Below are positions 3,673 to 61,355 of a stretch of DNA of 64,000 nucleotides, in pieces (position 1 is the stretch's first letter; every line of letters begins with the position of its first letter). The stretch lies in assembly GCA_030390025.1 (NCBI GenBank), contig CM059431.1, positions 154,506,001 to 154,570,000 of the forward strand, written 5' to 3'. Made by a program: the position numbers and the translations under genes. Under the pieces are notes generated by a model that saw nothing but the letters and a program-made list of their open reading frames with translations, did not search any database and had not been told where the DNA came from. Source of the DNA: Squalus acanthias (Eukaryota).

Positions 3673-4751
3673 ATATGTTTAAAGTTATGAACGGTTGAGA
3701 CAAAATAGATGGAAGCAGGCTATTTTCATTAGCTGATGTATCACGAACAAAGGAGCCAATTAAGTTAACGTTTAGATTTTCCCAATCCCACAATGAATTG
3801 AAGACACTCCCAAACAGTTAAAATACGGATTAAATCTAATGGTGAAATTACAACAACACAATTGAAGAAAACAAGCCAATGAAGCAGCAACTTCACTTGT
3901 TTACCGAAACACATTTGCTGTTTAAGTTTCAGTACTTGAAACTCGGAGCCTGATAATCATGAGTGGGAACATCCTGATCAAGGCAGAGGCTGCAACACAT
4001 CAACTAGAGAATTTCTGCCAGAGAATATAATCATTGTTCTTTTGTTAATAGGAAAATGATACGTGACAGCAATTGTAAACATTCATGGCAATAATGATTA
4101 GATTAGCATAAGAACAGAAGACATAAGAACATAAGAATATAGAACATAAGTTGTAGAAGTAGGAGTAGGTCATTTGGCCCCTCGAGCCTACTCCGCCATT
4201 CAATAAGATCATGGATGATCTGATCTTGGCCTCAACTCCACTTCCCTGCCCGCTCCCCATAACACTTCACTCCCTTACCTTTCAAAAATCTGTCTATCTC
4301 CACCTTAAATATATACAATGACTCAGCCTCCACAGCTCTCTGGGGAAGAGAATTCCAAAGATTCACGACCTTTGAGAGAAGAAATTCCTCCTCATTTCCG
4401 ATTTAAAAGGGTGCCCCCTTATTCTGAAATAATGCCCCCTAGTTCTAGATTCCCACAGGAGGGGGAACATCCTCTCTGCCTCTACCCTTTCAAGCCCCTT
4501 CAGAATCGAATATGTTTCAATAAGATCCATTCTCATTTATCTCAACTCCAATGAGTATAGGCCAAACTGCTCAACCTTTCTTCATACGATAATCCCTTCA
4601 TCTCCGGAATCAAGCTCTTGAACATTCTCTGAACTGCCTCCAACGCAAGTACATCCTTCCTTAAATAAGGAGACCAAAACTGTACGCAGTACTCCAGATG
4701 TGGGCTCACCAACGCCCTGTACAGTTTTAACAGGACTTCCCTACAATTATA

Positions 4752-5943
4752 GATACATAGATACATAGAAGATAGGAGCAGGAGTAGGCCATCCGGCCCT
4801 TCGAGCCTGCTCCGCCATTTAATGAGATCATGGCTGATCCTCCAATTCAGTATCCCGTCCCCGCCTTCTCTCCGTAACCCTTAACCCCTTTTGCCTGTAG
4901 AAATATATCTAATTCCCTCTTAAATATATTTAATGAGCTGGCGTACACTGCCCTCTGTGGCAATGAGTTCCACAGGTTCACCACCCTCTGAGTGAAGAAA
5001 TTCCCCCTCATTTCTGTCCTAAATGGTTTAGCCCTTTTCCTTAAATTATGTCCTCTAGTTCTGTTCTCACCCGCCAAGGGAAACATTCCTTCTGCATCTA
5101 GTCTGTCTAGACCTGTCAGAATTTTATACACTTCTATGAGGTCCCCTCTCAATCTTCTAAACTCCAGTGTGTACATCCCTAAACTACATAGTCTCTCCTC
5201 GTAGGTCAATCCCGCCATTCCTGGTATCAGCCTGGTGAATCGCCGCTGTACCCCCTCCATGGCAAGAACATCTTTCCTCAGATGAGGCGACCAAAACTGT
5301 ACACAGTACTCGAGGTGTGGTCTCACCAGTGCCCTGTATAGCTGCAGCAAGGTATCCCTGTTCCTGTATTCCAACCCTTTTGCTATGAAGGCCAGCATAC
5401 CGTTTGCCTTCTTGACCGCCTGTTGCACCTGCATGCTCGCCTTCAGTGACTGGTGTACAAGAACACCCAGGTCTCTCTGTACTTCCCCCTCTCCCAATTT
5501 ATTGCCATTTAAATAAAAATTTGCCCTCCCGTTCCTGCACCCAAGGTTGATAACTTCGCACTTGTCCACATTATAGTGCATCTGCCATTTAACCGCCCAA
5601 TCACCCAGTCTGTCCAAATCGCTCTGGAGCTTCCTGGTCTCCTCCTCTGAGCCCACCCCCCCTCCTAGTTTAGTGTCGTCTGCAAATTTGGAAATGCTGC
5701 ATCCGACTCCCTGATCCAGTTCATTAATGTAAATTGTGAACAGCTGGGGACCCAGGACAGAACCCTGCGGTACCCCACTTGTTACTGCCTGCCATTCAGA
5801 AAATGAGCCGTTTATTCCAACTCTCTGTTTTCTATCTGACAGCCAGTTCTCTATCCACGTCAATACTTTCCCCTTTATCCCATGAGCTTCAATTTTCCAT
5901 GCTAATCTTTTATGTGGGACCTTGTCGAAGGCCTTTTGCAATA
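4752..5943 (-). mobile_element. Young 5'-truncated CR1 LINE
   Basis: Uninterrupted RT C-terminal frame (QGSVLGP, FADD) ending at 4847. (GATACATA)n tail. TSD AATTATA at 4745-4751 and 5944-5950. Confidence 0.95.
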
Positions 5944-6750
5944 AATTATACGCCATTCCCTTTGCAATAAAGGCCAACACTCCATTGGCCTTCCCAATTA
6001 ATTGTTGTGCATGCATGCTAACTTTTAGTGATTCGTGTACAAGGACCGCTTCTGATCGCTCTGTTCCTAATCAGTTCGTAAACTCTCTCCATTTTAATAA
6101 TAATGAGCTTTTTTATTTTTCCTACCAAACTGGAAAACCTCGCATTTTGCCACATTAATCTCCATCTGACAAATTTTTGCCCACTCACTTGGCCTATCTA
6201 TATCCCTTTGGAGATTCTTTCCGTCCTCCACACAATTTGCTTTCCCACCTATCTTTGTATCATTAGCAAATTTGGCTACATTATACTAGGTACCTTCATC
6301 CAACTCATTAATATAGATTGTAACTAGTTGAGGCCCCAGCACTGATACCTGAGGCACAGCGCTAGCTAAAGTTTGACAAGCTGAAAATGTCCCATTAATC
6401 CCGAATCTCTATTTTCTGTTAGTTAGCCAATCCATGCTAATATATTACCTCAAGCTCTGATTTTGTGTAGTGGCAACTTTCTGGTAATCCAAATACACGA
6501 CATCTACTGGTTCCCCTTTATCCACCCTGCTCGTTACTTCCTCAAAGAACTCCAGCGAATTTGTCAAACATGATTTCCCTTTCATGAACCATGCTGACTC
6601 TTCTTGATTATATTGTGATTTTCTAAATGTCCGGCTATAACTTCCTTAATACATAGATACATAGATACATAGAAGATAGGAGCAGGAGTAGGCCATCCGG
6701 CCCTTCGAGCCTGCTCCGCCATTTAATGAGATCATGGCTGATCCTTCAAT

Positions 6751-9703
6751 TCAGTATCCCGTCCCCGCCTTCTCTCCGTAACCCTTAACCCCTTTTGCCT
6801 GTAGAAATATATCTAATTCCCTCTAAAATATATTTAATGAGCTGGCGTACACTGCCCTCTGTGGCAATGAGTTCCACAGGTTCACCACTCTCTGAGTGAA
6901 GAAATTCCCCCTCATTTCTGTCCTAAATGGTTTAGCCCTTATCCTTAAATTATGTCCTCTAGTTCTGTTCTCACCCGCCAAGGGAAACATTCCTTCTGCA
7001 TCTAATCTGTCTAGACCTGTCAGAATTTTATACACTTCTATGAGGTCCCCTCTCAATCTTCTAAACTCCAGTGTGTACATCCCTAAACTACATAGTCTCT
7101 CCTCATAGGTCAATCCCGCCATTCCTGGTATCAGCCTGGTGAATCGCCGCTGCACCCCCTCCATGGCAAGAACATCTTTCCTCAGATGAGGCGACCAAAA
7201 CTGTACACAGTACTCGAGGTGTGGTCTCACCAGTGCCCTGTACAGCTGCAGCAAGGTATCCCTGTTCCTGTATTCCAACCCTTTTGCTATGAAGGCCAGC
7301 ATACCGTTTGCCTTCTTGACCGCCTGTTGCACCTGCATGCTCGCCTTCAGTGACTGGTGTACAAGAACACCCAGGTCTCTCTGTACTTCCCCCTCTCCCA
7401 ATTTATTGCCATTTAAATAATAATTTGCCCTCCCGTTCCTGCACCCAAGGTGGATAACTTCGCACTTGTCCACATTATAGTGCATCTGCCATTTATCCGC
7501 CCAATCACCCAGTCTGTCCAAATCGCTCTGGAGCTTCCTGGTCTCCTCCTCTGAGCCCACCCCCCCCTCCTAGTTTAGTGTCGTCTGCAAATTTGGAAAT
7601 GCTGCATTCGACTCCCTGATCCAGGTCATTAATATAAATTGTGAACAGCTGGGGACCCAGGACAGATCCCTGTGGTACCCCACTTGTTACTGCCTGCCAT
7701 TCAGAAAATGAGCCGTTTATTCCAACTCTCTGTTTTCTATCTGACAGCCAGTTCTCTATCCACGTCAATACTTTCCCCTTTATCCCATGAGCTTCAATTT
7801 TCCATGCTAATCTTTTATGTGGGACCTTATCGAAGGCCTTTTGGAAGTCCAGGTACACCACATCTACTGGCTCTCCCCCATCTATTTTACCAGTTACTCC
7901 CTCAAAAAATTCCAATAGATTAGTCAAGCACGATTTACCCTTTGTAAATCCATGTTGACTCTGTCCTATCCTGTCCCCATTTGCTAAGTGCTCGGCTATT
8001 TCATCCTTAATGATGGACTCCAGCATTTTGCCCACAACTGATGTAAGGCTTACAGGTCTGTAATTACCTGCTTTTTCCCTACCCCCCTTTTTGAATAGTG
8101 GGGTAACGTTAGCTACCCTCCAATCCATGGGCACTGTTCCCGAGTCTAATGAATTCTGAAAAATCATGCTTAGTGCATCCGCTATCTCTAGGGCCACCTC
8201 CTTCAGTACCCTAGGATGCATGTTATCAGGCCCTGGGGATTTGTCCGCCTTCAATCCCTTTAGCTTCCTTAACACCATATCCTTAGAGATATTGATTTGC
8301 GTCAGTTCCTCCTTTGCCAATGTCCCTATTTTTCCCGATATCCCAGGGAGGTTTTTTGTGTCTTCCTTCGTAAAGACTGACCCAAAGTATGCATTTAGTT
8401 GGTCTGCCATTTCCTTATTTCCCATTATATATTCCCCCGTATCTGACTGCAATGGACCAACTTTGGTTTTCACCAGTCTTTTCCTCTTGATATATTTATA
8501 AAAGCTTTTGGAGTTAGTTTTTATATTTTCCGCCAGCTTGCTTTCGTAAGCTATTTTGCCCTTCTTGATTAAGCCCTTTGCCCTCCTTTGCTCTATCTTA
8601 AACTGTTCCCAATCTTCCGCTCCGGCGCGTTTTTTGGCTATTTTATACGCCCTATCTTTGGATTTTATGCTGTCTCTAATTTCCCCTGTTATCCACGGTT
8701 GAGTCACCTTTTTAGATTTCCTTTTATGCCAGATTGGTATAAACAATTTTTGCAATTTTGTCATTCTATCTTTAAATGCTTGCCATTGTTTATCTACCTC
8801 CAGTCCTCCCAGGAACGTTGTCCAATCAGACCTACTCAGTTCCCGTCTAATGGCATCATAATTCCCCTTGTTTAAATTCAGGACCTGAGTCTCTGAGTCA
8901 ATTTCTTCGCTCTCCATTTCGAGTGAGAAATCGATCATGTTATGATCGCTCTGACCCAAGGGTCCCCGTACAACAAGATTACTAATTAGTCCCTTCTCAT
9001 TGCACAGTACCCAGTCCAATATAGCCTGTTCCCGAGTTGGTTCCTCGACATATTGATCCAGATAACCATCCCTTAAACACTCAAGGAATTCCTCCTCCTC
9101 ATTATTTTTACTGATTAGGCTAGTCCAATCTATATGTAAGTTAAAGTCACCTATGATGACAGCTGTGCTCTTATTGCACGCTTCTCTAATTTCCCTCGTG
9201 ATGCCCTCCCCAACCTCTATTTTACTATTTGGAGGCCTATATACCACTCCTATTAATGTTTTTCGCCCCTCGCTATTTCTTAGCTCCACCCATATAGATT
9301 CTGTATTAACTGAGTTAATATCCTTCCTTTCAATTGCATTTATCCCCTCTTTTACCAGCAATGCTACCCCTCCTCCCTTTCTTTTTTGTCGATCCTTCCT
9401 AAATACTGAATACCCCTGTATGTTAAGCTCCCAGCCCTGCTCACCCTGCAACCATGTTTCCGTAATCCCAATTAGATCATAATTATTAACCTCTATTTCC
9501 ACAGCTAATTCATCTACCTTGTTCCTGATGCTTCTCGCATTAAGGTATAAAACCCTCAGGCTTTTTTTATGCTCACATTTTCTATGAATTAGTTTGGCCC
9601 TTTGTTTTTTGTTCCTCTCCTTTTTACCATTTATTTCTGTCTGCCTTTCACTTTCCTCTATTTCACTACATGGGTTTCTAGCCCCCTGCCATACTAGTTT
9701 AAA
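6751..9703 (-). pseudogene. CR1 ORF2: APE endonuclease + reverse transcriptase, near intact
   Basis: Endonuclease motifs YLNARS, ITETWL, VYRPP, GDFN and SDH; RT motifs [22 protein letters not shown] and FADD. Two lesions: an extra C in the run at 7560-7567, and a TAG at 6823-6825. Confidence 0.9.
9697..9703 (-). promoter_or_regulatory. Candidate -1 ribosomal frameshift slippery site U_UUA_AAC at the ORF1/ORF2 overlap
   Basis: ORF1 ends CAU UUA AAC UAG. The -1 frame is open from 9718 into ORF2, with no AUG until after the SDH motif. Confidence 0.6.
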
Positions 9704-12700
9704 TGCTCCCGAACTGCTTTATCAAAATTTACCCCGAGAACATCAGTTCCATCTTTGCACAGGTGTAGACCGTCCCTTTTGTATAGGTCACACCTACCAC
9801 AAAACTGGTCCCAATGCCTCAAAAATTTAAAACCCTCCCTCTTACACCACTGTAATGACGGATTCCAACATTTTCCCAATGACAGATATTAGGCTAACTG
9901 TTCGAAAGTTGCCTGCTTACTGTCTCTCTTCTTTCTTAAATAGGGGCGTTACATTTGTGGATTTCCAGTCCGCTGGGACCTCTCCAGAACCAGGGAATTT
10001 TGGTCGGAAATGGGAGTAGCAGTAGCCCATTTGGCCCTTCGTGGCTGTTTCGCCATTCAATGAGATCATGGCAGATCTTGTACCTCATCGCCACTTTCCT
10101 GCACTATCCCCATATCCGTTGATTCCCTCAACATAAAGGGCCTCATAGCGAGATTACCAGGACCGGGATTCGAATGTAGTTCATTTGCACAGAGTTAGAA
10201 TCTGGACAAAGAAGCAGCTAGATATCGAAATTTAAGATAATTCAAAACTGTTAAAGTTTCAGTTTTGTGAGATTACTGTGCCCTTCGATCTGGTGTTGAA
10301 TCTAAGAAACTAACAGCGATCTTTGTTCGTTGCTATCTGTGGCATTTTATATTCCGATAATATGGTAGTTTTATGGAGAACAATAACATCGTGTGGAGGA
10401 CATGGAGCTGATTCCTGCAACAGAACACAATTTCTCTGCGGGGTCTTCTGAACTGCAGATGGAAGAGGCGGAGGACATTTAATAATTGTTAGCACACCAA
10501 GCATTAATGACTTTGGTTAAAGGATCAGTAACTCACCAGGACAGTTCAACCTGAATGAGACCGTGTTTAATTCAGATCAAGCCCTGCACCAGAGATTAGG
10601 GTGGGGAGAGATTGTACTGATCAGGGCTGATGGTCGTGCTTATAACTGTGATATGTAACTACTGTACCCAGGGTGTATACATTACCATGCGGAACATGCA
10701 GCGTTATTTATCCGGATTCTCTGGAACCAGAATCAGTAGCCGCAGCACAAGGTAAGGACCGGAATATACTGAGCACCATTATAGCATTTTTATGTATTTC
10801 AAAATTTGCAGTATCCATCATGGATCAAGTCAGAAAATATTGTTTTTTCAGAAATTAATTTACTGGATGTAGCGCCATTTAACAGAATAAAACTTTAAAA
10901 TGTAAACTCGTACCCTGAAATTATATTGGTGTAATTCGTATATCAATATTTTTTTCTGCTTTATGACACGGCTATGATCAAAATGTTAGAAGTTGATATT
11001 CTTCAACATAAATCACACCCAGTAACCATCACCGAAATCAAGGATTACAGACATCATTAACCTTCATTGAACCCATATTGACCTCAGGATTCTAGAGCTC
11101 CTTGTGCCAAACGCATCAAATAACGCCTTGTTGTCGAGGAGAGGTATGTTCACATTTCCGCTGTCACTTAACTCTTGCACCTGTAAACTTCTCAGGATCG
11201 AGGAGTTCAGGCATTACCCGAAATTCGCGTCTGTGAGCAGGTGATTGTTAAGTGAGTGCGGCTTGATCACTCTATTTATGAGTCGCTCCATCGCTCTGCT
11301 GATTATTGAGAGGTGACTGATAGGAGGATAATTGGTTGAGTCAGTGTGTCCTTAATTTCGCGGATAGGATATAGCTGGTGATCCAAAATATATCCCTCAA
11401 GAGCAAAAATTCCCCTTGTGCAGTCAAAGAACCATGATCTACATTTGAGTTAAGACGCAGTATAAAACTAATGTCAGGGACTTACACAAATAGCAGAAGA
11501 CTGTCAAAAATATAAAAAGCAACTAAGGGACACAAAGAAATTATTAAAAGCTGCTGGAATGGAACACGAACAAATTTTCCAAGCGATATAACTGCTAATT
11601 TATAAATAATGTATAAATATATCAAGTGTAAGAAAGTGGATGATATTAATGACAGACACAGGTGATACGGAAATAGTTAACAAGGTAATAGCCGAGTATT
11701 TTTTTAAGTACTTTTTATTGGATTTCACAGCATAGGAAGATGACAAAATACCAATGATAGAAGGGAAACTAAAAATAAATCAAGGAGAGGAATTACTGCA
11801 TTCCAAATATTAAAAATTGTAACGGGGAAATCAATGGACATCGGATAGATACATCTCCAGGTCTTCATTTTCCACCATAGGGTATTAAAATAAGCATGGG
11901 TGGGAATTATACAAACGTTATGTGGATTTACAGAAGGCATTTCGTGCCTTTCCCACCCAGCAGATGGCCACACTCATACTGTCCTTCATTAAAAAGTGAT
12001 TTACTGATAATAAGGCAACATGTCAAATTATATAGTCAAGTGGGATTCCCGTTACCACGAAATCTTCCTTAATGATTCAATTTCAAAGAAGAGCAACAGT
12101 ATTTGTCCGCAGCAGAATTAAAAAATATGTATTCTAAAGTGTTAAACTGATGTATTTTTACGCATTGGATACACTCTGGCAGAACACTTGCACATATTTG
12201 AAAGTTGCATTGAGGTTACCTGAAACGAGCACCTGTTGTGCTGAAAACAACTGGTTGGAAGTGAGTGGTGGTGACTCGCAGGATTCAGTCTGGGGCCACT
12301 TATATTTCTATTACTAGTTTGAATATAAATCTTGCTCAATATTTGCAGATGGTGTAATAATTAAGTATTTATATATTTCCTAACGTGATATATAATTACT
12401 ATATAGGAAATTGAAAATATAGGGGATGTGCTAAAAATGACATTTGAAATCAATGCAGTGTTAGGTGATACATACTTGTAAAATATCAGCTGCAATCGCA
12501 CACTGAATTGAGGGAGATTCGGTGCTGTGTCGGAGCAGAGTGTGTAGAGGATACACGTTCACGGGACATATAATGCAGCACCTCAGGTTGATAAGGCCGT
12601 AGAAAATGCAGTGGTAGTCTAGGTTTAATTTCATGTTTTATAGAATAAAGAATTTGAGATAGTAATGTATTTAAATAAACACTTAGAAAGACTTCCATTG

Positions 12701-23744: not shown

Positions 23745-26700
23745 TAAGAACATAAGAGCATAAGAAATAGGAGCAGGAGTAGGCCAATTGGCCCCTCGAG
23801 TCTGCTCCGCCATTCAATAAGATCAAGGCTGATCTGATCCTAACCGCCAATCTACTATCACAGAACCATCTCCTAAACCGAATATAATTGGACACATGAA
23901 ATAGGAGCAGAATCAGGCTACACGGCCCCTGGTCCCGCTGCGCTACCCACAGGGCCATGACCAATCCGAACCTAGACTCATGTCCAAATTCATGCCCGCT
24001 CCCCGTAACCCTTAATTCCCTTTACTTCTAGGGAACTGTCTATTTCTGTTTTAAATTTATGTAATGATATAGCTTCTACAGCTTTTTGGGGCAGCATATT
24101 CCATGGACCTACCACCCTCTGAGAGAACTAGTTCCTTCTCATCTCAGTTTTGAAAGAGCAGCCCCTTATTCTAAGTCTATGCCCACTAGTTCTAGTTTCA
24201 CCCATCATCGGGAACATACTCCCCGCATCCACCCGATCAAACCACCTCGCAATCTAATATGTTTCAATAAGATTGCCTCTCATTCTTCTGAACTCCAATG
24301 AGTAGAGTCCCAATCTACCCAACCTCTCCTCATATGTCCATCCTCACATCCCCGGGATTAACCGAGTGAACCTTCTTTGTACTGACTCGAGAGCAAGTAT
24401 GTCTTTTCTTAAGTATGTACACCAAAACTGTGTGCATTATTCCAGGTGCGGTCTCACCAATACCTAGTACAACTGAAGCAATACCTCCCTATTTTTTATA
24501 TTTTATCCCCCTAGCAATGAAAGCCATTGGCCTTCTTAATCACTTGCTGCACCTGCATACTAACCTTTTGAGTTTCGTGCACCAGGACCCCCAGATCCCT
24601 TTGTACTTCAGTTCTTTCCAATTTCTTGCCATTAAGATAATAAGTTGCTCTACTATTTTTCCTGCAAAGTGCATAACCTCACACTTTCCAGTATTGTATT
24701 CCATCTGCCAAATCTCTGCCCACTTACTTAGCCTGTCTATGTCCTCTTGCAGATGTTTTATGTCCTCATCACTCACTACTTTCCCTCCCATCTTAGTATC
24801 ATCTGCAAACTTGGATATGTTACACTCGGTCCCCTCCTCCAAATCGTTAATATAGATTGTAATGAGTTGGGGATCCAGCATGACCCCTGCAGAACAATAC
24901 TAGTTACTGATTGCCAGTCTGAGAATGAACCATTTATCCCAACTCTCTGCCGTCTGTTAGATAGCCAATCCTCTATCCATGCCAGAATATTACCCCCAAT
25001 CCCCTAATTTTTTATTTTAAGCAATAATCTTTTGTGTGGCACCTTGTCAGATGCCTTTTGGAAGTCTAAATACACCACATCCACTGGTTCCCCTTTATCA
25101 ACCCTGTATGGTACTTCCTCAAAGAATTCCAGCAAATTTGTCAAACATGTCTACCCCTTCATAAAACCATGTTGACTTTGTCCTATTAAATTATGATTAT
25201 CCAAATGTCCCGTTACTGTCACCTTAATAATGGACTCCCAAATTTCACCTACCACAGATGTTAGGCTAACCGGTCTATAGTTTCCCGCCTTCTGTCTACT
25301 GCCCTTTTTTAAATAAGGGTGTTACATTAGCAGTTTTCCAGCCTGCCGGGATCTTTGCTGAGCCAGGGAGTTTTGGAAAATTATTACCAATGCATCCACA
25401 CTCCCTACCGCCACTTCCCTCAAGACCCTAGGATGTAAGCTATCATGTCCAGGTGATTTATCCGCCTTGAGTCCCATTATTTTTCTGAGTACCACTTCCT
25501 TAGTGATTTTGATCGTGTTTAGCTCCTCCCACCACTATAGCCCCCTGTTTGTCCAGTGTTGGGATATTCCTAGTGTCCTCTACTGTAAAGACTGATACAA
25601 AATATCCATTCAGTGTATTTGCCATCTCCATATTTCCCACCATTAATTTCCCGATCTCATCCTCTAAGGGACCAACATTTACTTTAGACACCCTTTTTCT
25701 TTTTATATAACTATAAAAACTCTTACTATCTGATTTATATTTTTTGCTAATTTACTTTCATAATCTATCTACTCTTTCATAATCAAACTTTTTTTTTAAT
25801 TTTTTGCTGACTTTTAATGTTTTCCAAATCCTCTATCCTCCCACTAGTTTTGGCTAACTTATAGCCCTTGTTTTTATTCGAATACTATCCTTAATTTCTT
25901 TACTTAGCCATGGATGACTGTCTTTTCTTTTACACACTTTTCTTCTCAGTGGAATATTTTTTTTGTAAGTTGTAAAATAACTCCTTAAATGTACACCACT
26001 GATCATGTATCGTCTTATCATTTAATCTATTTTCCCATTCCACTCTACTCAATTCCGCTCGCATACCTTCAAAATCTCCTTTATTCAAGCTTAGCACGCT
26101 TGTTTGAGATCCAATCTTCTGACCCTCTAATTGAATATGGAATTCAACCATGTTATGGTCACTCATTCCAAGGGGATCCTTTACTAGGACATTTTAATTA
26201 ATTCTTTCTCATTACACAGGACCAGATCTAAGGTTGCTTGCCCCCTGGTCGGTTCAGTAACGTACTGCTTAAGAAACCCATCCCTAATATATGATAAATT
26301 GACCCTTAGTGTTCGGGGGGATTAAATATGTGGGGTTATGGGGATAGGATGGGATATGTTAGGGGGAATTAAATACGTGGGGTTACGGGGGTAGGGTGGG
26401 ATATGTGTACTGTGGGGATTAAAGCAGGGACAGGGTACTGGATTTGGATCATCAGCCATGATCGTATTGAATGGCGGAGCAGGCTCGACGGGCCGAATGG
26501 CCTACTCCTGCTCCTAGATTCTATGTTTCTATGTTTCTATGTAATACACTCAATGAACTCATCCTCAAGGCAGCGCTGTCCAATTTGATTTGTCCAATTA
26601 ATATGATAGTTAAAATCCCCCATAATAATAGATGTTTCCTTATTACAAGCCACAACTATTTCTTGATTGATACTCCGTCTAACAGAATTGCAACTGTTCG

Positions 26701-28117
26701 GAGTCCTATAGACTACACGATCTACTGTTTTTTCCCATTATTATTCCTTATCTCAACCCAAACTGTTTCATTATCCTGATCTTTTGACCCAATATCATTT
26801 CTCTGTATTACAGTGATTCCTTTCTTTATTAACATAGCCACCCCACCTCCCCATCCTTCCTGCTTGTCCTTCCTGATCGTTAAATAACCTGGTATGTTTA
26901 ATTCCCAGGCATTGTCACCCTGCAGCCATGTTTCTGTAATGGCCACAAGATCATACCCATATGTAGTTATTTGTGCCATTAACTCGTCTATTTTGTTAGG
27001 AATGCTACGTGCATTCAGATAGAGAACTTTCAATTATGTTTTGTGATACTTAGTTCCTGCTTTTTCCCTTTTTATTTCTTTACATTTTACTTCATACCTT
27101 CTTTCCCTTCCTGACACACTCTGTTTTTTTAATTTCACCACTGCTACCTAAGTCTATGATCTTCTCTGTTGTCATTTTAATTATTTGCTCTCTAGGAACC
27201 TCCCCCCCCCCCCCCCACTAGACAGTTTAAAGCCCTCTCTACAGCCCTAGTTCTTTGATCCGCAGGGAGTCTAGTCCCAGCACTGGCCAAGTGAAGCCCA
27301 TCCAAACGGAACAGCTCCCTGGTGCCCCAGTACTGGTGCCAGTATCCCAGGAATCAAAACCCATTTCTCTCACACCAGTCTTTGAGCCACTCATTTAGCT
27401 CTCTAATTTTATTTGTACTAGCCAAATTCGCTCGTTGCTCAGGTAATAATCCAGAGATTATTACCCTTGAGGTCCAGTTTTTAAATTTGAAACCTAGCTG
27501 CTCATACTCCTATAACAGAAGCGGCTTCCTTGTCCTATCTACGTCGTTTGTACCAACATGGACCACGACAACTGGATCCACCACCTCCCACTGCAAGTTT
27601 CTTTCCAGCCCAGAGGAGATGACCCTCAACCTGGCTAACGGGACTCTCGCTCTCGGCAGCAGATAACTCTACCTATCCCCCTAATAATACTATCCCCTAC
27701 CACTACAACATTTCTAGTTACTCCCCCCTCATGAATGGCCCCCCGTTCCACGGTGCTGTGGCCAGGTTGCTCATCCTCCCTGCAGTCCCGGCTCCCGTCC
27801 CCACAGAGAGTTATAACCTCGAACCTGTTGGACAAGAGCAAGGGCTGCGACTCCTCCAACACTTCCTCCTGGATCCCCGTACCTGCCTCGCTCGTAGTCA
27901 CACCGTACTGTCCCTGACCATGGGCTACATCTGAATTAATTAACTTCATAGGTGTGACCACCTCCTGAAACACAGAGTTCAGGTACTTCTCCCCCTCCCT
28001 GACGTGTCGCAGTGTCTGAAGCTCAGACTCCAGCTCATCAACACGGAGCTGGAGTTCCTGTAGCAGCAAACACTTGTCACAGATGTAATCACCGGGAGCC
28101 TCAATGGGGTCCACCGG
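23745..28117 (-). mobile_element. Near full-length, degenerate CR1 (ORF1 zinc finger/coiled coil/SGNH + ORF2)
   Basis: ORF1: YICDKC..LQLRVDELESEL..VVGDSIIRG (27635-28114). ORF2 begins KVLYLNARS at 27033. RT fragments and a GAACATAA tail are present. Confidence 0.9.
26290..26541 (+). mobile_element. 5'-truncated HE1-like SINE nested in CR1
   Basis: Nearly identical to the reverse complement of 3243-3490. TAATA is repeated on both flanks. Confidence 0.9.
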
Positions 28118-28956
28118 CTGATAACACCTCTAAACCCGCCTTTGTTTAGGTGCTGCACCATTAGTTCAGTATCGGCTGCATCTGATATTTTTTGAAGAAC
28201 TGTAAGGCTGCAGAATTATCCTAATTGTATCTCGATGCAGCTGGAAAAAAAATGGAAAGGTGGTTGGGTGCGATCCAGTTGTCGTGGTTCATTAGGTACC
28301 GAATGACACGGGAAAGAACAGGTTGGAGGGACTGCGGAGGGAGTACCAGGAGGTAAGCGCCAATTAAAAGGAAGAACTCGTGGGTAATTATATTGGGATT
28401 GTTACCCAAGACACGTGAAAATTGAAATAGGGACCAGAAGATTAGGAATGTTTACACTTGGCTAAAGGATTGTTGTGGGAAAGAGTATTTACATTCCAAT
28501 GAACACCGTTATCCATACTGGGAAGGGAAGGAGCTGTACAACTTGATCTGGGTTCACCTGAAATGGGTTAGTACCATGTTATAGCTCATAGGATACTAGC
28601 GCTGTAAAAATATATTAAATCAATAAAAGGCGGGGATGGCGCTCAGGCAGAAGTTGTAGGAAATAAGGACAAAATAGCTGATAAAATCATAACAGAAATG
28701 ATAAAAATAGAGTTTGATGAGTTAAAATGTGGGCTAAAACCTCAGGAAATGAGAGCAGCACAGGGGCCATTGTTCAATTAAATGTTCTGTACACTAAAGG
28801 ACGTAGCGTAAGTAATAAATCAAGTGAATTCGAAGCGCAAATTCAAATTAAACGGTGTGACGTATTGCCCATAAATAAGATCTCGTAAAAAGCAGAATAT
28901 GACTGGTAGAGAGAGATATTCCACGTTGTAAGGTCTAGAGAAAGGTAATGGCAATT

Positions 28957-41734: not shown

Positions 41735-43611
41735 CTACTTTTTGCCCTTCGAGGGTGATCTCCTTCCCTTGCCCACTTCCCCCCTTCTAACCCTACTGCT
41801 CCTCCGTAATGGGACCTCAGTGGCTGCAGCAAGGCTGGTGGAAGGCTGCTGCTCGTCAGACACTGACACTGCAGATGCCCCTGAAGGACGGCCTCGACCA
41901 CTTCTGGGCCTGTAGGGCCCGGCTGCAGACTGCACCAACTCTGCATGGGCGGCAGCAGTCTGTCCTACAGGCGGTGGCAAGTGCAGTGGAGAAGTGACAG
42001 TGTTGGCAGCAGGAATGCTGTCATCGTGAGAGAGGACAGCAACTCCTTGCTCGCCCGACACACTGGCATTCCCACGGGGCAGCACTTCAGCATCCGGAGC
42101 AATTTGCCGGAGAACAGATTGCTGGCCAGCTGCGGCGCGGTGACAGCCCCGGGGATATGTGCACGAACCATCGAGGATGGCAGCAGTCAGTGCTCGCGTG
42201 GCCTCAATCTGAGTCTGCATGAGAGCAGTCTCAGATGGGTTCCTGGCAGCCAGTGACTGAATTGCAGCACTAAGCTTTAGTGTGGCATCCGCCTGTGCCA
42301 CAGCGAAGTGCTCCACACTCCTTGCCAGTGATTCAATGCATTCGGGCACCCTTCCCACTGCACCCATGAGCTCACTGTGCATGCCCACCGCCTGGCTGTT
42401 CATTTCTGCAATCAGCCGCTCCTCCTCTGCGTCCATTGCAGTAGGAGAGTCTGGCATACTCTCCCTCTGGGGAGAAGGCCCCCGTTCTTCCCTACCCCCC
42501 CCCATGGCGTTTCTGCAGCCCGCTGGGTCCTGGAGCTTCACCATCATCAGCCCCTTCCCCCCTGCTCCCCTCCGGGGAAGGCGTGTTCCCAGTGTGGGCA
42601 TGGGCTTCCTCGGGAGAGGGTGGCACTGATGCTCCGGCTTCCTCTTCCTCCTCAGCTGCAGCATCACTCCCAGTGGCAGCTTCAGGGCCCGTCTCCTCAG
42701 CTGGTGAATCACCATCTGAAAGCAGGGAGGTACAAGAGTGGCTTTAGCGTGAGGACAGGGTGGCAGTAAGGGAGGAATAAGTGCAGCGAGTTAGCAAGTT
42801 GGATTGAAAGTGTCAAAGGCTGGTATTGTGAGGGACAAGTGGAAGGACAGAGGACAAAAAGGTGATGACCTTACCATTGCTGTCCACAACGGGGTCGGCG
42901 TCTCCAGTGGCGACGGGACCGATCACCCGGCTTGCCACAATCCTGTGGACGCGCTCCTCCAGATCGCTGAGGGGTTGCAGCTGAAGCCGCCCTCCACCCG
43001 TCCGTTGCTGCTGTCTCCGATTATGAGCCAGCTTAGCCTGCAAGAAAAAGGACAGCATCTGAGTAAATATACAGCCATGGTCTTGCCTGATGTGCCTCCC
43101 ATAGGTGAATAGCCCTTACAATATAAAGCCATGGTCTTGCCTGATGTGCCTCCCATAGGTGAATAGCCCTGACTGTATGCAGCCATGGTCTTGCCTGATG
43201 TGCCTCCCATAGGTGAATAGCCCTTACTGTATGCAAAGTGTGGAATGTGTGTGTGTGTTTGATGAAAGGGCCATAGGTGTTGGATGAGTGTTGTGCATTG
43301 GGGTTTTAAGACCCTCTGGCCATAGAGTGAGGTTGAGATGGAGGGATGGAGAGGTATTGAGAAAAAGCCACTCACCCTGACGACCCGAGTGAGGTCGTTG
43401 AACTTTTTGCGGCATTGAACATGGGTCCTGGGCACCATGCTCCTGGAGGAGACGCTCTGAGCCACCTCCATCTACACTCTTCTGAACTCGCGTGCAAAGG
43501 CCTCCTGCCACTCTCCGGGAACAGCATGCATCGTCTGCGCTCCACTGCGTCAACCAGAGCATCCAAGGCCCGCTCGGTGAAGCGATGAGCGCGTTCTCTC
43601 ACCCTCTCCAT
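41735..43611 (-). pseudogene. Harbinger Myb/SANT-like DNA-binding protein, 3 exons (43611-43376, 43037-42875, 42715-41735)
   Basis: RAHRFTERALDALVDAV...EVAQSV..RTHVQCRKKFNDL. GT-AG introns have compatible phases (0, 1). Frameshift and stop at ~43470-43500, and a frameshift in the G-run at ~42500. Confidence 0.85.
43073..43235. repeat. 54-bp tandem repeat, three copies, in Myb intron 1
   Basis: GCCATGGTCTTGCCTGATGTGCCTCCCATAGGTGAATAGCCCT starts at 43074, 43128 and 43182. Confidence 0.95.
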
Positions 43612-46600
43612 GCTTGGCAGCAAAATGGATTACAGGTCTCTCCAGGCTGAGATTCAAGGCTACAATGAGCAGGGTGTGGCTGGGGAGCAAGTGCCCCCCC
43701 CCCCGCTTTAAGAAGTGTCCGGCGCCAGTGTGTCTGTGTTCCCTCGCTAACTGGCAGCAGCTGCGCTGCGCTCGTGCGCTGAGTTAGCGCCTCACTCCTT
43801 GGCCTTTGCGCCTTAAGAGAGGTGTGCAGCGCCTAATTTAGCGCTCCACTCACCTCCCGGGGCGGTAAAAGTGAAGTTTCCTGTCAGTGCCGATAATTAG
43901 CGCCAGGCGCTAATATTTGCGTCCGGACGATATTTGCGCCCCAAATGGGGCGCGACCTAATTTCTACCCAAGGAACATTCGGAACAAGGTGGATGAATTA
44001 GCTGCCAGAATAGAAGTTGATGAATACAATTTGATTGGGTTTACAGAAACATGGCTTCAGGGTGACCAAGGCTGGGAACTCAACATCCAGGGATATTCAA
44101 TATTTAAGAAAGATAGGCAAAAAAGAAAGGGAGGTGGGGTAGCTTTGCTGGTTAAAGAGGGGATTAACACAATTGAAAGGAAGGATATTAGCTCTAATGA
44201 TGTGGTATCTGCATGGGTAGAACTGAGGAATAACAAGGGGCAGAAAACGTTAGTGGGAGTGGTATATGGACCTCCAAACAGTAATACGGAGTTGGGGACG
44301 GCATTAAAAGGGAAATTAGAGAAGCATGCAGTAAGAGCACAGCAGACATCATGGGTGACTTTAATTTACATGTAGATTGGGCTAACCAAATTAGTAAAAA
44401 TACTGTGGAGCAGGAATTCCTAGAATGTTTACGGGATGTTTTTTTGGAACAATATATCGAGGGCTCAACCAGAGATCAGGCCATTTTAGACTGGGTATTA
44501 TGTAACGAGAAAGGATTAATTAGAAATCTTGTTGTACGTTGGGTCAGAGTGATCATAATATGATAGAATTCTTCATTAGGATGGAGAGTGAATAGTTGAA
44601 TCAGAGACTTGGGCCCTGAATTTAAATAAAGGGCACTACAATGGTATGAGGCACGAATTGGGTCGGATTGATAGGGGAATTTCACTCAAAGGGTTGACGG
44701 TGGATAGGCAATGGCAAACATTCAAAGACTGCATGCATGAACTACAGAATTTGTTCATCCCAGGGTGGCATAAGATAAAACAAAAAGGCTGACTCATCCG
44801 TGGCTAACAAGGGAAATTAGGGATAGCATAAGATCCAAGGAGTGGGCATTTAAATTGGCCAGAAAAAGCGGTAAATCTGAAGATTGGGAGCAGTTTAGAA
44901 TTCAACAAAGGAGGACAAAGGGATTAATAAAGAAAGGGAACATAGAATATGAAAGTAAGCTTGCAGGGAACATAAAAACTGACTGTAAGAGCTTTTTATA
45001 GATATGTGAAGAGAAAAAGAGTAGTGAAATCAAGTGTAGGTCCCTTGCAGTCAGAAGCGGGGGAAGTTATAATGAGGAACAAAGAAATGGCAGACCAATT
45101 AAATGCATATTTTGTTTCTGTCTTCAAAAAGGAGGACACAAATAACCTCCCAGCGATGTTGGAGAACATAGGGTCTGATGAAATGGTGGAAGTGAAATAA
45201 ATCAGCATTTGCAGGGAACTGGTATTAGGGAAATTGACGGGATTGAATCCGATAAATCCCCAGGGCCTGATAATCTACATCCTAGGGTACCTAAGGAAGT
45301 GGCCCTAGAAATAGTAGATGCATTGCTGATCATCTTCCAACATTCGATGGAATCTGGAAGTGTACCCATGGATTGGAGGGTAGCTAAAGTTACCCCACTA
45401 TTAAAAAAGGGTGGTAGAGAGAAAGTGGGGAATTGACATCGGCAGTGGGGAAAATGCTGGAGTCCATTATAAAGGATATAATAGCTGAGCACTTGAAAAA
45501 CAGTGACAGGAGCGGACAAAGTCAACATGGATTTACAAAAGGTAAATCGTGCTTGACTAATCTACTGGAAATTTTTGAGGATGTAACTGGGAAAATAGAT
45601 AAAGGAGAACCAGTAGATGTGGTGTATTTTGACTTACAAAAGGCTTTCGATAAGGTCCCGCATAAGAGATAAGCGTTTAAAGTTAAGGCACGTGGGATTG
45701 GGGCAAGGTATTGATTTGGATAGAGAACTGGTTGTCGGACAGAAAGCAGAGAGTAGGAATTAATGGTTCTTTTTTCCGAGTGGCAGGGAGTGACTCGTGG
45801 GGTACGGCAGGGATCGGTCCTTGGACCCCAGCTATTCACAATATACATTAATGATCTAGATAAGGGAACTAAATGTAATATCTCCAAGTTTGCAGATGAC
45901 ACAAAGCTGGGTGGGCGTGTGTGCTGCGAGGAGGATACCGAGAAATTCCAGGATGATTTGGACAGATTGGGTGAGTGGGCAGAAGCGTGGCAGATGCAAT
46001 ATAACGTGGATAAATGCGAGGTTTTCCAGTTTGGTGTCAAAAACAGAAAGGCAGACGATTATCTGAATGGCAATAGTTTGGGAGAAGGGGAAGTGCAACG
46101 AGACCTGTTTGCCCTTGTGCACCAGTCGCTGAAGGTAAGCATGCAGGTGCAGCAAGCGGTGAAGAAGGCAAATGGTATGTTGGCCTTCATAGAGAAATGG
46201 TTTGATTATAGGAACAGGGATGTCCTGCTGCAGTTGTACAGGGCCTTAGTGAGACAACACCTTGAGTACTGTGTGCAGTTTTGGTCGCCTTATCTGAGGA
46301 AGGATGTTCTTGCCATGGAAGGAGTTCAGCGAAGATTCACAAGGCTGATAGCTGGGATGGCAGGAACGACATATGAGGAGAGATTGGGACGATTGGGTTT
46401 ATACTCGCTGGAGTTTAGAAGAATGAGAGGGGATCTCATCGAAACACATACAATTCTGACAGGTCTGGACAAACTAGATGCAGGAAGAATGTTCCCGATG
46501 GTGGGAGAGTCCAGAAACAGGTGTCATAATCTAAGGGTAAGGGGCAAGCCATTTCGGACATAAATGAGGAAGAATTTCTTCACCCAGAGAGTGGTGAACG

Positions 46601-58971: not shown

Positions 58972-61355
58972 AACCAACTCGGGAACAGGCTATATTGGAC
59001 TGGGTACTGTGCAATGAGAAGGGACTAATTAGTAATCTTGTTGTACGGGGACCCTTGGGTCAGAGCGATCATAACATGATCGATTTCTCACTCGAAATGG
59101 AGAGCGAAGAAATTGACTCAGAGACTAAGGTCCTGAATTTAAACAAGGGGAATTATGATGCCATTAGACGGGAGCTGAGTAGGTCTGATTGGACAACGTT
59201 CCTGGGAGGACTAGAGGTAGATAAACAATGGCAAGCATTTAAAGATAGAATGACAAAATTGCAAAAATTGTTTATACCAATCTGGCATAAAAGGAAATCT
59301 AAAAAGCTGACTCAACCGTGGATAACTGGGGAAATTAGAGACAGCATAAAATCCAAAGATAGGGCGTATAAAATAGCCAAAAAAGCGCCAGAGCGGAAGA
59401 TTGGGAACAGTTTAAGATAGAGCAAAGGAGGACAAAGGGCTTAATCAAGAGGGGCAAAATAGCTTACGAAAGCAAGCTGGCGGAAAATATAAAAACAAAC
59501 TCCAAAATCTTTTATAAGTATATCAAGAGGAAAAGACTGTTGAAAACCAAAGTTGGTCCATTGCAGTCAGATACGGGGGAATATATAACGGGAAATAAGG
59601 CAATGGCAGGCTAACTAAATGCATACTTTTGGTCAGTCTTTACGAAGGAAGACACAAAAAACCTCCCTGGGATATCGGGAAAAATAGGGACATTGCCAAA
59701 GGAGGAACTGACGCAAATCAATATCTCTAAGGATATGGTGTTAAGGAAGCTAAAGAGATTGAAGGCGGACAAATCCCCAGGGCCTGATAACATGCATCCT
59801 AGGGTACTGAAGGAGGTGGCCCTAGAGATAGCGGATGCACTAAGTACGATTTTTCAGAATTCATTAGACTCGGGAACAGTGCCCATGGATTGGAGGGTAG
59901 CTAACGTTACCCCACTATTGAAAAAGGGGGGTAGGGAAAAAGCAGGTAATTACAGACCTGTAAGCCTTACATCAGTTGTGGGCAAAATGCTGGAGTCCAT
60001 CATTAAGGATGAAATAGCGGAGCACTTAGCAAATGGGGACAGGATATGACAGAGTCAACATGGATTTACAAAGGGTAAATCGTGCTTGACTAATCTATTG
60101 GAATTTTTTGAGGGAGTAACTGGTAAAATAGATGGGGGAGAGCCAGTAGATGTGGTGTACCTGGACTTCCAGAAGGCCTTCGATAAGGTCCCACATAAAA
60201 GATTAGCATGGGAAATTGAAGCTCATGGGATAAAGGGGAAAGTATTGACGTGGATAGAGAACTGGCTGTCAGATAGAAAACAGAGAGTTGGAATAAACGG
60301 CTCATTTTCTGAATGGCAGGCAGTAACAAGTGGGGTATCACAGGGATCTGTCCTGGGTCCCCAGCTGTTCACAATTTACATTAATGACCTGGATCAGGGA
60401 GTCGGATGCAGCATTTCCAAATTTGCAGACGACACGAAACTAGGAGGGGGGTGGGCTCAGAGGAGGAGACCAGGAAGCTCCAGAGCGATTTGGACAGACT
60501 GGGTGATTGGGCGGATAAATGGCAGATGCACTATAATGTGGACAAGTGCGAAGTTATCCACCTTGCGTGCAGGAACGGGAGGGCAAATTATTATTTAAAT
60601 GGCTATAAATTGGGAGAGAGGGAAGTACAGAGAGACCTGGGTGTTCTTGTACACCAGTCACTGAAGGCGAGCATGCAGGTGCAACAGGCGGTCAAGAAGG
60701 CAAACGGTATGCTGGCCTTCATAGCAAAAGGGTTGGATTACAGGAACAGGGATACCTTGCTGCAGCTGTACAGGGCACTGGTGAGACCACACCTCGAGTA
60801 CTGTGTAACAGTTTTGGTCGCCTCATCTGAGGAAAGATGTTCTTGCCATGGAGGGGGTGCAGCGGCGATTCACCAGGCTGATACCAGGAATGGCGGGATT
60901 GACCTATGAGGAGAGACTATGTAGTTTAGGGATGTACACACTGGAGTTTAGAAGATTGAGAGGGGACCTCATAGAAGTGTATAAAATTCTGACAGGTCTA
61001 GACAGACTAGATGCAGAAGGAATGTTTCCCTTGGCGGGTGAGAACAGAACTAGAGGACATAATTTAAGGTAAAGGGCTAAACCATTTAGGACAGAAATGA
61101 GGGGGAATTTCTTCACTCAGAGGGTGGTGAACGTGTGGAACTCATTGCCACAGAGGGCAGTGTACGCCAGCTCATTAAATATATTTAAGAGGGAATTAGA
61201 TATATTTCTACAGACAAAAGGGGTTAAGGGTTACGGAGAGAAGGCGGGGACGGGATACTGAATTGGAGGATCAGCCATGATCTCATTAAATGGCGGAGCA
61301 GGCTCGAAGGGCCGGATGGCCTGCTCCTGCTCCTATCTTCTATGTAATCTATGTA
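58972..61355 (+). mobile_element. Young 5'-truncated CR1, same subfamily as 6651-9852
   Basis: Near-identical translations in ORFs 58995-61072, with several stops and frameshifts. Confidence 0.95.

Follow-up and report, generated by a model that had tools for sequence, protein, structure and literature searches.

How the second open reading frame of LINEs is translated has been described as an open question (Luke 2013). The question is raised again by a CR1 copy on the minus strand of the window, the whole stretch of 64,000 nucleotides of Squalus acanthias DNA that we analyzed. In this copy ORF1 ends with CAT TTA AAC TAG, and ORF2 lies in the −1 frame. The heptamer U_UUA_AAC thereby stands within the overlap of the two frames, in exact X_XXY_YYZ zero-frame register (Table 1). 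How do ribosomes reach ORF2? The original prediction was that they shift by −1 at this heptamer. Our comparisons make programmed −1 frameshifting, leading to a fusion of ORF1, endonuclease, and reverse transcriptase, the probable answer for the CR1 family of this copy. We did not find −1 frameshifting proposed for CR1 in the literature searched, a set to which the original CR1 papers did not belong, and the papers on the CR1 clade within that set do not address the mode of ORF2 translation.

Table 1. Positions of the junction and of related features in the window
Feature	Position	Strand	Remark
Slippery heptamer U_UUA_AAC (DNA TTTAAAC)	9697..9703	(-)	last two ORF1 codons and one base
ORF1 stop UAG	9694..9696	(-)	directly 3' of heptamer
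UAA closing the −1 frame upstream	9719..9721	(-)	
ORF1 3' remnant, SGNH/GDSL esterase C-terminus (...DGLH...EHLN-stop)	9694..9852	(-)	
Charged linker, 46 codons	9560..9697	(-)	no AUG
Conserved GCAGGGGG motif, G-run starting about 10–11 nt after heptamer	9682..9689	(-)	candidate stimulator
ORF2 frame, endonuclease (PF03372/PF14529) and reverse transcriptase (PF00078)	7505..9718	(-)	
G-run, ORF2 frame change (decay)	7560..7567	(-)	rest of ORF2 at 6823–7569, another frame
8-bp tandem repeat tail, CR1 3' end	6649..6673	(-)	3.1 copies, no poly(A)
Second CR1, same heptamer and register (...RALN)	27225..27231	(-)	diverged, decayed

The element has an APE-type endonuclease with a reverse transcriptase, an esterase-type ORF1, and a short-repeat 3' tail, as expected of a CR1. 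The closest named matches of its ORF2 are shark and ray proteins (56–70%); the only tree built is that of the esterase. About 52 codons of ORF1 are left, because the copy is truncated near 9852, within an older CR1. Read alignments have loose ends at 9845–9853, near the 5' end of the copy. The ORF1 remnant is too short for a Pfam match of its own; it is 56% identical over 52 aa to a PF13472 protein, P0125 (E 6e-19). Being both 5'-truncated and frameshifted, the copy is dead. Hence, the frameshift signal has to be seen as a property of its CR1 family. The second CR1 of the window has lost the stop, and its endonuclease is about 51% identical to that of the first copy.

Much of what had been predicted for the junction can be read from the window itself. 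Re-reading the sequence returned the heptamer in the register claimed, directly before the ORF1 stop, and translation agreed that the −1 frame opens after the UAA and then runs without a stop through the linker into the endonuclease. Since this UAA closes the −1 frame upstream, the two ORFs overlap by about 25 nt. Of the three frames of the linker, the −1 frame alone is open (no stops vs. four and eight in the other frames). The endonuclease starts at a CUG (9559–9557) with an A at −3. As predicted, the first in-frame AUG of ORF2 lies beyond the endonuclease, in SDHNM; we located it at 8938, where it follows the N of LNARS by 201 residues. A nearby AUG (9692) does not belong to the ORF2 frame and opens a frame of 4 codons. 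Canonical heptamers occur at 4–12 per 2000 positions in ORF2 bodies, so that finding one exactly at the end of ORF1 is unlikely by chance, even in a single copy.

The main support for frameshifting is comparative. T TTA AAC TAG ends ORF1, with ORF2 in −1, in four distant families (L012, L039/L040, the L043 family, and L054/L055), the junctions of which were found by protein queries without the heptamer DNA. In a sister lineage (L033 and L034) T TTT TTA stands in the same register and at the same place. TTTAAAC is also present at 18 vertebrate CR1 consensus junctions in the supplement of PMC13343379, where the stop is TAG in 11, TAA in 6, and TGA in 1; these counts are motif-led and cover the opening 400 letters of every cell. 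For the heptamer, nine variants that are synonymous or changed in the first base, each searched together with TAG in this supplement, gave 15 matches, none of them at a CR1 ORF1 end. The supplements of PMC4316615 (all files but one) and PMC2734521 yielded no match. The expected conservation of heptamer and register is therefore present in four distant families and 18 consensus rows, counts that are not independent events because CR1 families are related. Among collection scans, those of viral contigs and the one of plasmids gave no match. One scan of genome contigs returned 11 loci at 24–29% identity, which we took as bacterial-type SGNH, and two returned none; a metagenome scan returned 20 loci, one a CR1 and the other 19 at 23–36% identity.

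A similar pattern is visible in the ORF1 proteins. Of the 47 ORF1s that contain a DxxH motif, 44 have LN before the stop. The residue before LN was in no case (0/50) one whose codons are unable to end in T, compared to 26/50 and 17/50 at the two preceding positions; in an independent set the figures are 1/42 vs. 9 and 12. In the sister lineage 26 of 27 ORF1s end in x-F-L-z. Other clades have a GN terminus (11), a KN terminus (3), or KN at the same place (9). At the protein level, the GN and KN endings would fit G_GGA_AAC and A_AAA_AAC, and three of the four heptamers listed as most shifty are fitted by clade endings (Atkins 2016). No LN, GN, KN, or FFz ending is found in 38 of the 97 esterase representatives, 9 of which have an internal KN.

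Because the heptamer DNA is kept across distant lineages while the stop and the neighboring residues vary, the site is, judged from sequence comparison, under selection at the nucleotide level beyond what coding needs. It is then likely that CR1 reaches ORF2 by −1 slippage, since distant relatives either keep the heptamer or swap it for another slippery one.

The linker points in the same direction. In all seven families with a usable junction its −1 frame is free of stops (least-broken copy of each), and linkers of 85–88 codons also remain open. The probability of an open linker under dinucleotide shuffling was 0.02, 0.57, 0.23, 0.09, 0.09, <0.001, and <0.001 in the seven families. This count leaves aside L035–L037 and L113–L116 (other LINE types or no parsable esterase junction) as well as L032, L053, and L056, which stop short of the junction. 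Among the near-fixed family differences listed from reads, none introduces an AUG or a stop into the linker. Together, the kept heptamer, the varying stop, the swap, and the open linkers strongly favor the route to ORF2 that the original prediction had suggested.

The first methionine lies inside the endonuclease in six of the seven families, the exception being L034, where it is upstream. The predicted lack of an upstream AUG thus stands for the window family. It does not stand for L034, for L032 and related ray-type proteins, or for three of the 18 consensus rows (ScyCan_CR1-1a, SquAca_CR1-17a, and SquAca_CR1-6c), in which a UAAUG in the ORF2 frame overlaps the ORF1 stop.

These AUGs bear on the alternative that survives best, coupled termination–reinitiation. 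Ribosomes would finish ORF1 at its stop and begin anew in the −1 frame, either at an overlapping UAAUG, as in SART1, or independently of AUG, as reported for L1, and make a separate ORF2 protein. Both precedents speak for it, as do the UAAUG of the three consensus rows, the AUG just after the L034 hairpin, and, for the LN class, the stop that immediately abuts the site; the open linker would be accounted for as well. However, the window family reads UAG UA, and the codon at the overlap is GUA, which is not a start codon. Reinitiation also leaves unexplained why the heptamer codons are invariant beside a varying stop, why a T precedes them, and why lineages swap among canonical heptamers, and the site does not adjoin the stop in either the FLz or the internal-KN class. 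We therefore consider this alternative unlikely.

It is far less probable again that LN is kept for the function of the ORF1 protein and that ORF2 starts internally, at the CUG (9559) or a linker AUG, through leaky scanning or an IRES. IRES-like initiation has been discussed for LINEs (Luke 2013), and both the context of the CUG in the window copy and the linker methionine of ray-type CR1s would suit such a start. Yet the codon at the start of the endonuclease differs among families (CTG, ATT, ATT, TAT, TAT, CTA, and TTA), and even the linkers of 85–88 codons stay open. Selection on the protein would moreover permit synonymous codons, none of which was seen in the loci and consensus rows inspected, on which the invariance of these codons rests. 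We give equally little credence to the idea that the frames are joined in the RNA, with the AG of the ORF1 stop used as a splice acceptor or with the polymerase slipping close to the junction: CTAG looks like a 3' splice site, the G-run varies in length among copies, and gene model P0004 has ORF1 and ORF2 in one frame, but TAA or TGA stands at 7 of the 18 consensus junctions, the G-tract cannot fuse the frames because it is located after the ORF1 stop, and no variant, indel, or joint falls in 9694–9703 among those listed from 3691 aligned RNA reads (run X21 contributed only 8 reads, and in run X23 both mate directions were about equal, so that strand and expression level are not readable).

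If −1 frameshifting is the route, what stimulates it? A heptamer without a stimulator shifts poorly. The compact pseudoknot (UGGC/GCUA) of the original prediction can indeed be drawn, and as a conserved element it has to be rejected: the GCUA arm is replaced in the close relatives ScyCan_CR1-1a and PriPec_CR1-7, and is missing in L012, L039, L043, and L055. Shuffled sequences fold as well as the 97 nt downstream of the heptamer do (z −0.40; range −0.27 to −0.40). In the U_UUA_AAC class we found no significant or conserved hairpin or pseudoknot, including at 5–9 nt 3' of the heptamer, where a stimulatory structure would be expected; what is conserved downstream is a G-tract. A duplex scan for a long-range partner of this G-tract found none common to the families. 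Only L033 and L034 show a modest hairpin, 11 nt after the heptamer (z −1.9 and −1.8), with one A-U/C-G exchange between them.

Under programmed frameshifting, the Leu and Asn tRNAs would slip in tandem from UUA-AAC to UUU-AAA, so that the junction would read ...EHLN-LVWQG.... A minor fusion of ORF1, linker, endonuclease, and reverse transcriptase would be made beside abundant ORF1 protein. The stop codon adjoining the site may help, and so may the G-tract, which lies 11 nt downstream. Having no conserved pairing partner, the G-tract may be a protein-binding site; this is the weakest step of the mechanism. A wider scenario is tentative, and we would sooner expect it to need revision than to hold as a whole. 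Across animals, CR1 esterase LINEs would share an ancestral gag-pol-like −1 shift that cycles among canonical heptamers; the U_UUA_AAC class would be driven, without RNA structure, by the abutting stop and a protein-binding G-tract at fixed spacing; and the active retrotransposase would be an ORF1-tethered fusion of endonuclease and reverse transcriptase.

With a defined 7-nt site and its natural swap variants, a reporter could put the question to a direct test. If frameshifting does occur, CR1 ORF2 protein carries ORF1 protein at its N-terminus. Models of particle assembly and cis-preference would then change, and ORF2-only annotations and constructs would be incomplete. It would also bring in a cellular class of −1 frameshift signals that is abundant and has an unusual, possibly protein-bound, stimulator. 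CR1-group elements make up 22–34% of shark and ray genomes and the dominant LINE content of birds.

How does the proposal compare to known systems? Known LINEs of the CR1 clade share with the window copy the esterase ORF1, the endonuclease–reverse transcriptase ORF2, the 8-bp repeat tail, and severe 5' truncation. SART1 stop–start coupling and L1 reinitiation resemble the proposal in that ORF2 depends on translation of ORF1 from a bicistronic LINE RNA. They differ in yielding a separate ORF2 protein and in needing no heptamer, and in the window family the stop neither overlaps nor precedes an AUG of this kind. Coronavirus ORF1a/1b and retroviral gag-pol share the X_XXY_YYZ heptamer, its register, and a minor polymerase fusion. 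The sister lineage has the HIV-1 heptamer, U_UUU_UUA, together with a hairpin. U_UUA_AAC itself is the site of IBV and ranks with the most shifty heptamers (PMC5009743). Unlike these viruses, CR1 is a non-LTR retrotransposon whose U_UUA_AAC class lacks a conserved pseudoknot or stem-loop and whose stop abuts the heptamer. In PRRSV, frameshifting stimulated by nsp1beta and PCBP depends on a short motif lying about 11 nt 3' to the slippery site, not on RNA structure (PMC5009743). The CR1 G-tract lies at a similar fixed distance; it is G-rich whereas the PRRSV motif is C-rich, and its protein partner is only supposed, so that the analogy is a lead only. Closest in kind are TRE5-A and TRE3-A of Dictyostelium, LINEs with ORF1 and ORF2, for which the figure legend of a review states that a −1 frameshift is required for ORF2 translation (PMC5911963). 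The passages covered, those of PMC5911963 among them, give no slippery site or experiment for these elements. TRE5-A and TRE3-A belong to the APE-type L1 clade, live in another host, and have no esterase ORF1, whereas the signal of CR1 is spread over many animal lineages.

Our results suggest that programmed -1 frameshifting probably gives rise to ORF2 in esterase-bearing CR1 LINEs, as the original prediction proposed for the window copy. The U_UUA_AAC junction at the end of ORF1 very likely functions as a recoding signal in these elements, judging by sequence comparison. Frameshifting is favored because it alone covers the fixed heptamer codons, the free stop, the preceding T, the -1 register, linkers that are open and lack an AUG, and the exchange of one canonical heptamer for another, all together.

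In the window copy, the heptamer, its register and the adjoining ORF1 stop are real and were found again at 9703-9694 on the minus strand. A domain search places endonuclease and RT in the -1 frame. The first ATG of this frame (8938) is in SDHNM, where the original prediction placed it, 201 residues beyond the N of LNARS, which we take, from L1 endonuclease, to be the active-site asparagine. The copy itself is dead. It retains only about 52 ORF1 codons (56% identical to the CR1 esterase C-terminus), begins at about 9852 within an older CR1 and changes ORF2 frame inside a G-run at about 7560-7567. Its best named protein matches come from sharks and rays.

Coordinates of CR1 features in the window
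Feature	Position	Strand	Remark
Heptamer	9703-9697	minus	ORF1 frame closes CAT TTA AAC TAG
ORF1 stop TAG	9696-9694	minus	directly 3' of heptamer
TAA before open -1 frame	9721-9719	minus	ORF2 frame then 737 codons, to 7505
8-bp repeats	6649-6673	minus	3' end of window copy
5'-truncated copy	58972-61355	plus	98% identical to element under study
5'-truncated copy	4749-5941	minus	98% identical to element under study
Heptamer of second CR1	27231-27225	minus	same register; stop lost

The family is young, because two other pieces of the window are 98% identical to this copy. Reads and contigs of four runs were placed on 9330-9890. At 9694-9703, where run X23 reaches a depth of about 80 reads, the rows listed (93 variant and 223 loose-end rows lie beyond these) contain no variant, indel or joint. 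Mate directions are about equally frequent in X23, and run X21 contributed 8 reads in all. Four near-fixed linker differences (9582, 9618, 9621 and 9672) read AAA, GTG, AGG and CTA, codons read by hand, and therefore create neither an AUG nor a stop.

CR1 fragments of different ages lie nested in the window. The element under study interrupts ORF2 of an older CR1; coding sequence of the latter resumes on either side, at 9853-10010 and 6640-5960. A GC-rich stretch with intron-like pieces lies at about 42000-43620 (minus), and its start, read by eye, may resemble a Myb/SANT-type (Harbinger-like) ORF.

The same junction recurs elsewhere. The second window CR1 (26540-28260, minus) is decayed, its endonuclease about 51% identical to the first; its ORF1 is nearly whole, with a cysteine motif, a coiled-coil-like stretch and the esterase, and the G-run 3' of its heptamer has expanded to about 15. 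Protein-profile loci add four families with T TTA AAC TAG and ORF2 in -1: L012 (the one CR1 among 20 loci), L039/L040, the L043 family and L054/L055. All are eukaryotic contigs sitting in prokaryotic assemblies, and in an esterase tree the vertebrate-type clade does not include the relatives of L039, L043 and L055. Across 22 contigs of the L043 family, the heptamer is intact at 14 of 15 parsed junctions, and 5 of 7 unparsed contigs contain the motif; where the endonuclease was parsed, it is in -1 and open in 8 of 11 and broken in the other 3. CR1-type LINEs (L032-L059) also occur in MAGs and in G001, a 17.8 Mb assembly in which the esterase matches more than 20 times. Bacterial names are attached to certain CR1 proteins (P0129, P0018); all this is assembly contamination.

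Published consensus sequences carry the junction as well. In supplementary table 2 of PMC13343379 (first 400 letters per cell, rows read by eye), TTTAAAC stands at the CR1-group ORF1 end in 18 rows, followed by TAG (11 of 12 matches), TAA (6 of 8) or TGA (1 of 3), a motif-led count without a full denominator. By our reading of row prefixes, these span crocodilians, lizard, frog, coelacanth, bowfin, teleost, chimaera, sharks and rays. Of the 15 matches to nine synonymous or first-base variants, searched with TAG only, none lies at a CR1 ORF1 end. Three ORF2 bodies hold 4-12 canonical heptamers per 2000 positions. In the SquAca_CR1-3 and -18 consensus sequences the TTTAAAC-plus-stop word recurs in the 5' leader, followed by GGGCGGG or GAGCGGG.

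Among protein endings, LN closes 44 of the 47 ORF1 homologues that have DxxH (67 matches in all). The preceding residue takes 11 values, yet is incompatible with a final T in 0/50, versus 26/50 and 17/50 at the two positions before; an independent set gave 1/42, versus 9 and 12. Clustering at 50% yielded 140 new representatives, 97 with DxxH near the end; these finish in LN (42), GN (11), KN (3), FFz (3) or otherwise (38, of which 9 carry KN at the homologous place). LN, GN and KN fit the residues that U_UUA_AAC, G_GGA_AAC and A_AAA_AAC would encode, GN and KN being known here from protein only. These are three of the four heptamers ranked most shifty in the part of Atkins 2016 (PMC5009743) covered. 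In L033 and L034, ORF1 ends as far from DGLH as elsewhere, yet the site reads T TTT TTA and is followed by a single free codon before the stop; register stays the same, with ORF2 in -1. The ending x-F-L-z, in which z varies freely, closes 26 of 27 homologues of L034 ORF1. In the esterase tree (116 sequences, terminal residues left out, midpoint root), FLz forms one clade with support 1.0, internal KN and GN/KN fall in clades of their own, and none of the 7 outgroup members has such an ending. Another esterase-ORF1 type (L113, L115), in which a PHD finger precedes the esterase and a long C-terminal tail has a zinc-knuckle-like motif, lacks a heptamer-stop junction where the esterase ends. All these counts overstate independence, because the families are related.

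The main rival is termination-reinitiation, in which ORF2 would be started afresh after the ORF1 stop. Reinitiation-type mechanisms operate in L1 and SART1, and UAAUG, its AUG being in frame with ORF2, occurs in 3 of 18 consensus rows; in such families reinitiation may also act. The predicted lack of an upstream AUG stands for the window copy and for 6 of 7 families (least-broken copy each), whose first Met lies inside the endonuclease, but not for these rows, for L034 (in-frame Met 79 residues ahead of the endonuclease N), or for L032 and the ray-type proteins P0004-P0006 (linker Met). These exceptions count against frameshifting, as does a CUG at the endonuclease start of the window copy, which is not kept across families. 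P0004, a gene model from a stingray annotated as hydroxyacid oxidase 2 isoform X1, reads ORF1-ORF2 in one frame through FKL; it is probably either a gene-model artefact or a copy whose G-run ahead of the heptamer has an indel. The -1 linker is open in all seven families (one least-broken copy each), with shuffle probabilities of 0.02, 0.57, 0.23, 0.09, 0.09, <0.001 and <0.001. Reinitiation does not jointly cover codons, stop, T, register, linkers and swaps, and we regard it as unlikely to be the general route.

The pseudoknot (UGGC/GCUA) drawn downstream by the original prediction did not survive: it folds at shuffle level and its arms are lost in relatives, which rules it out as a conserved element. 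Conserved instead is a G-run beginning 11 nt 3' of the heptamer. TAG-N4-GCAGGGGG is common to the window copy, L039, L043 and L055, with a near match in L012, and at least four G start 7-11 nt downstream in 12 of 18 consensus rows (by eye). The families compared share no local or long-range partner for it. Constraint at the protein level is possible, because the run encodes Gln-Gly in the -1 frame. L033 and L034 have a hairpin 11 nt 3' of the site (z -1.93 and -1.84; arms GCACUCA/UGAGUGC vs GCACUCC/GGAGUGC). As a lead only, the G-run might be a protein-bound stimulator at fixed spacing, by analogy with the protein-bound motif of PRRSV (PMC5009743, part covered).

A full-text literature search found no proposal of -1 frameshifting for CR1 ORF2; the 1997 papers on CR1 of chicken and turtle, like the entries in Repbase, lie outside its reach and may hold a prior remark. 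The first 300,000 of 449,034 characters of Atkins 2016 (PMC5009743) mention neither CR1 nor LINE-1, their sole non-LTR passage concerning HeT-A and TART. Luke 2013 (PMC3894237), in the portion covered, regards the way ORF2 is initiated as unsettled and names UAAUG, IRES and 2A. A term search found no "frameshift" in the main text covered of PMC13343379, PMC4120745 and PMC3905857, and the portions covered of PMC11835228, PMC2881922, PMC2734521, PMC5408684, PMC5006619, PMC1965478, PMC3159450 and the supplements of PMC4316615 contain no such proposal for CR1. Frameshifting is described for other elements in the text covered: a -1 frameshift is needed by the Dictyostelium LINEs TRE5-A and TRE3-A (PMC5911963), and Penelope-like elements use a frameshift with a pseudoknot (PMC8557442).
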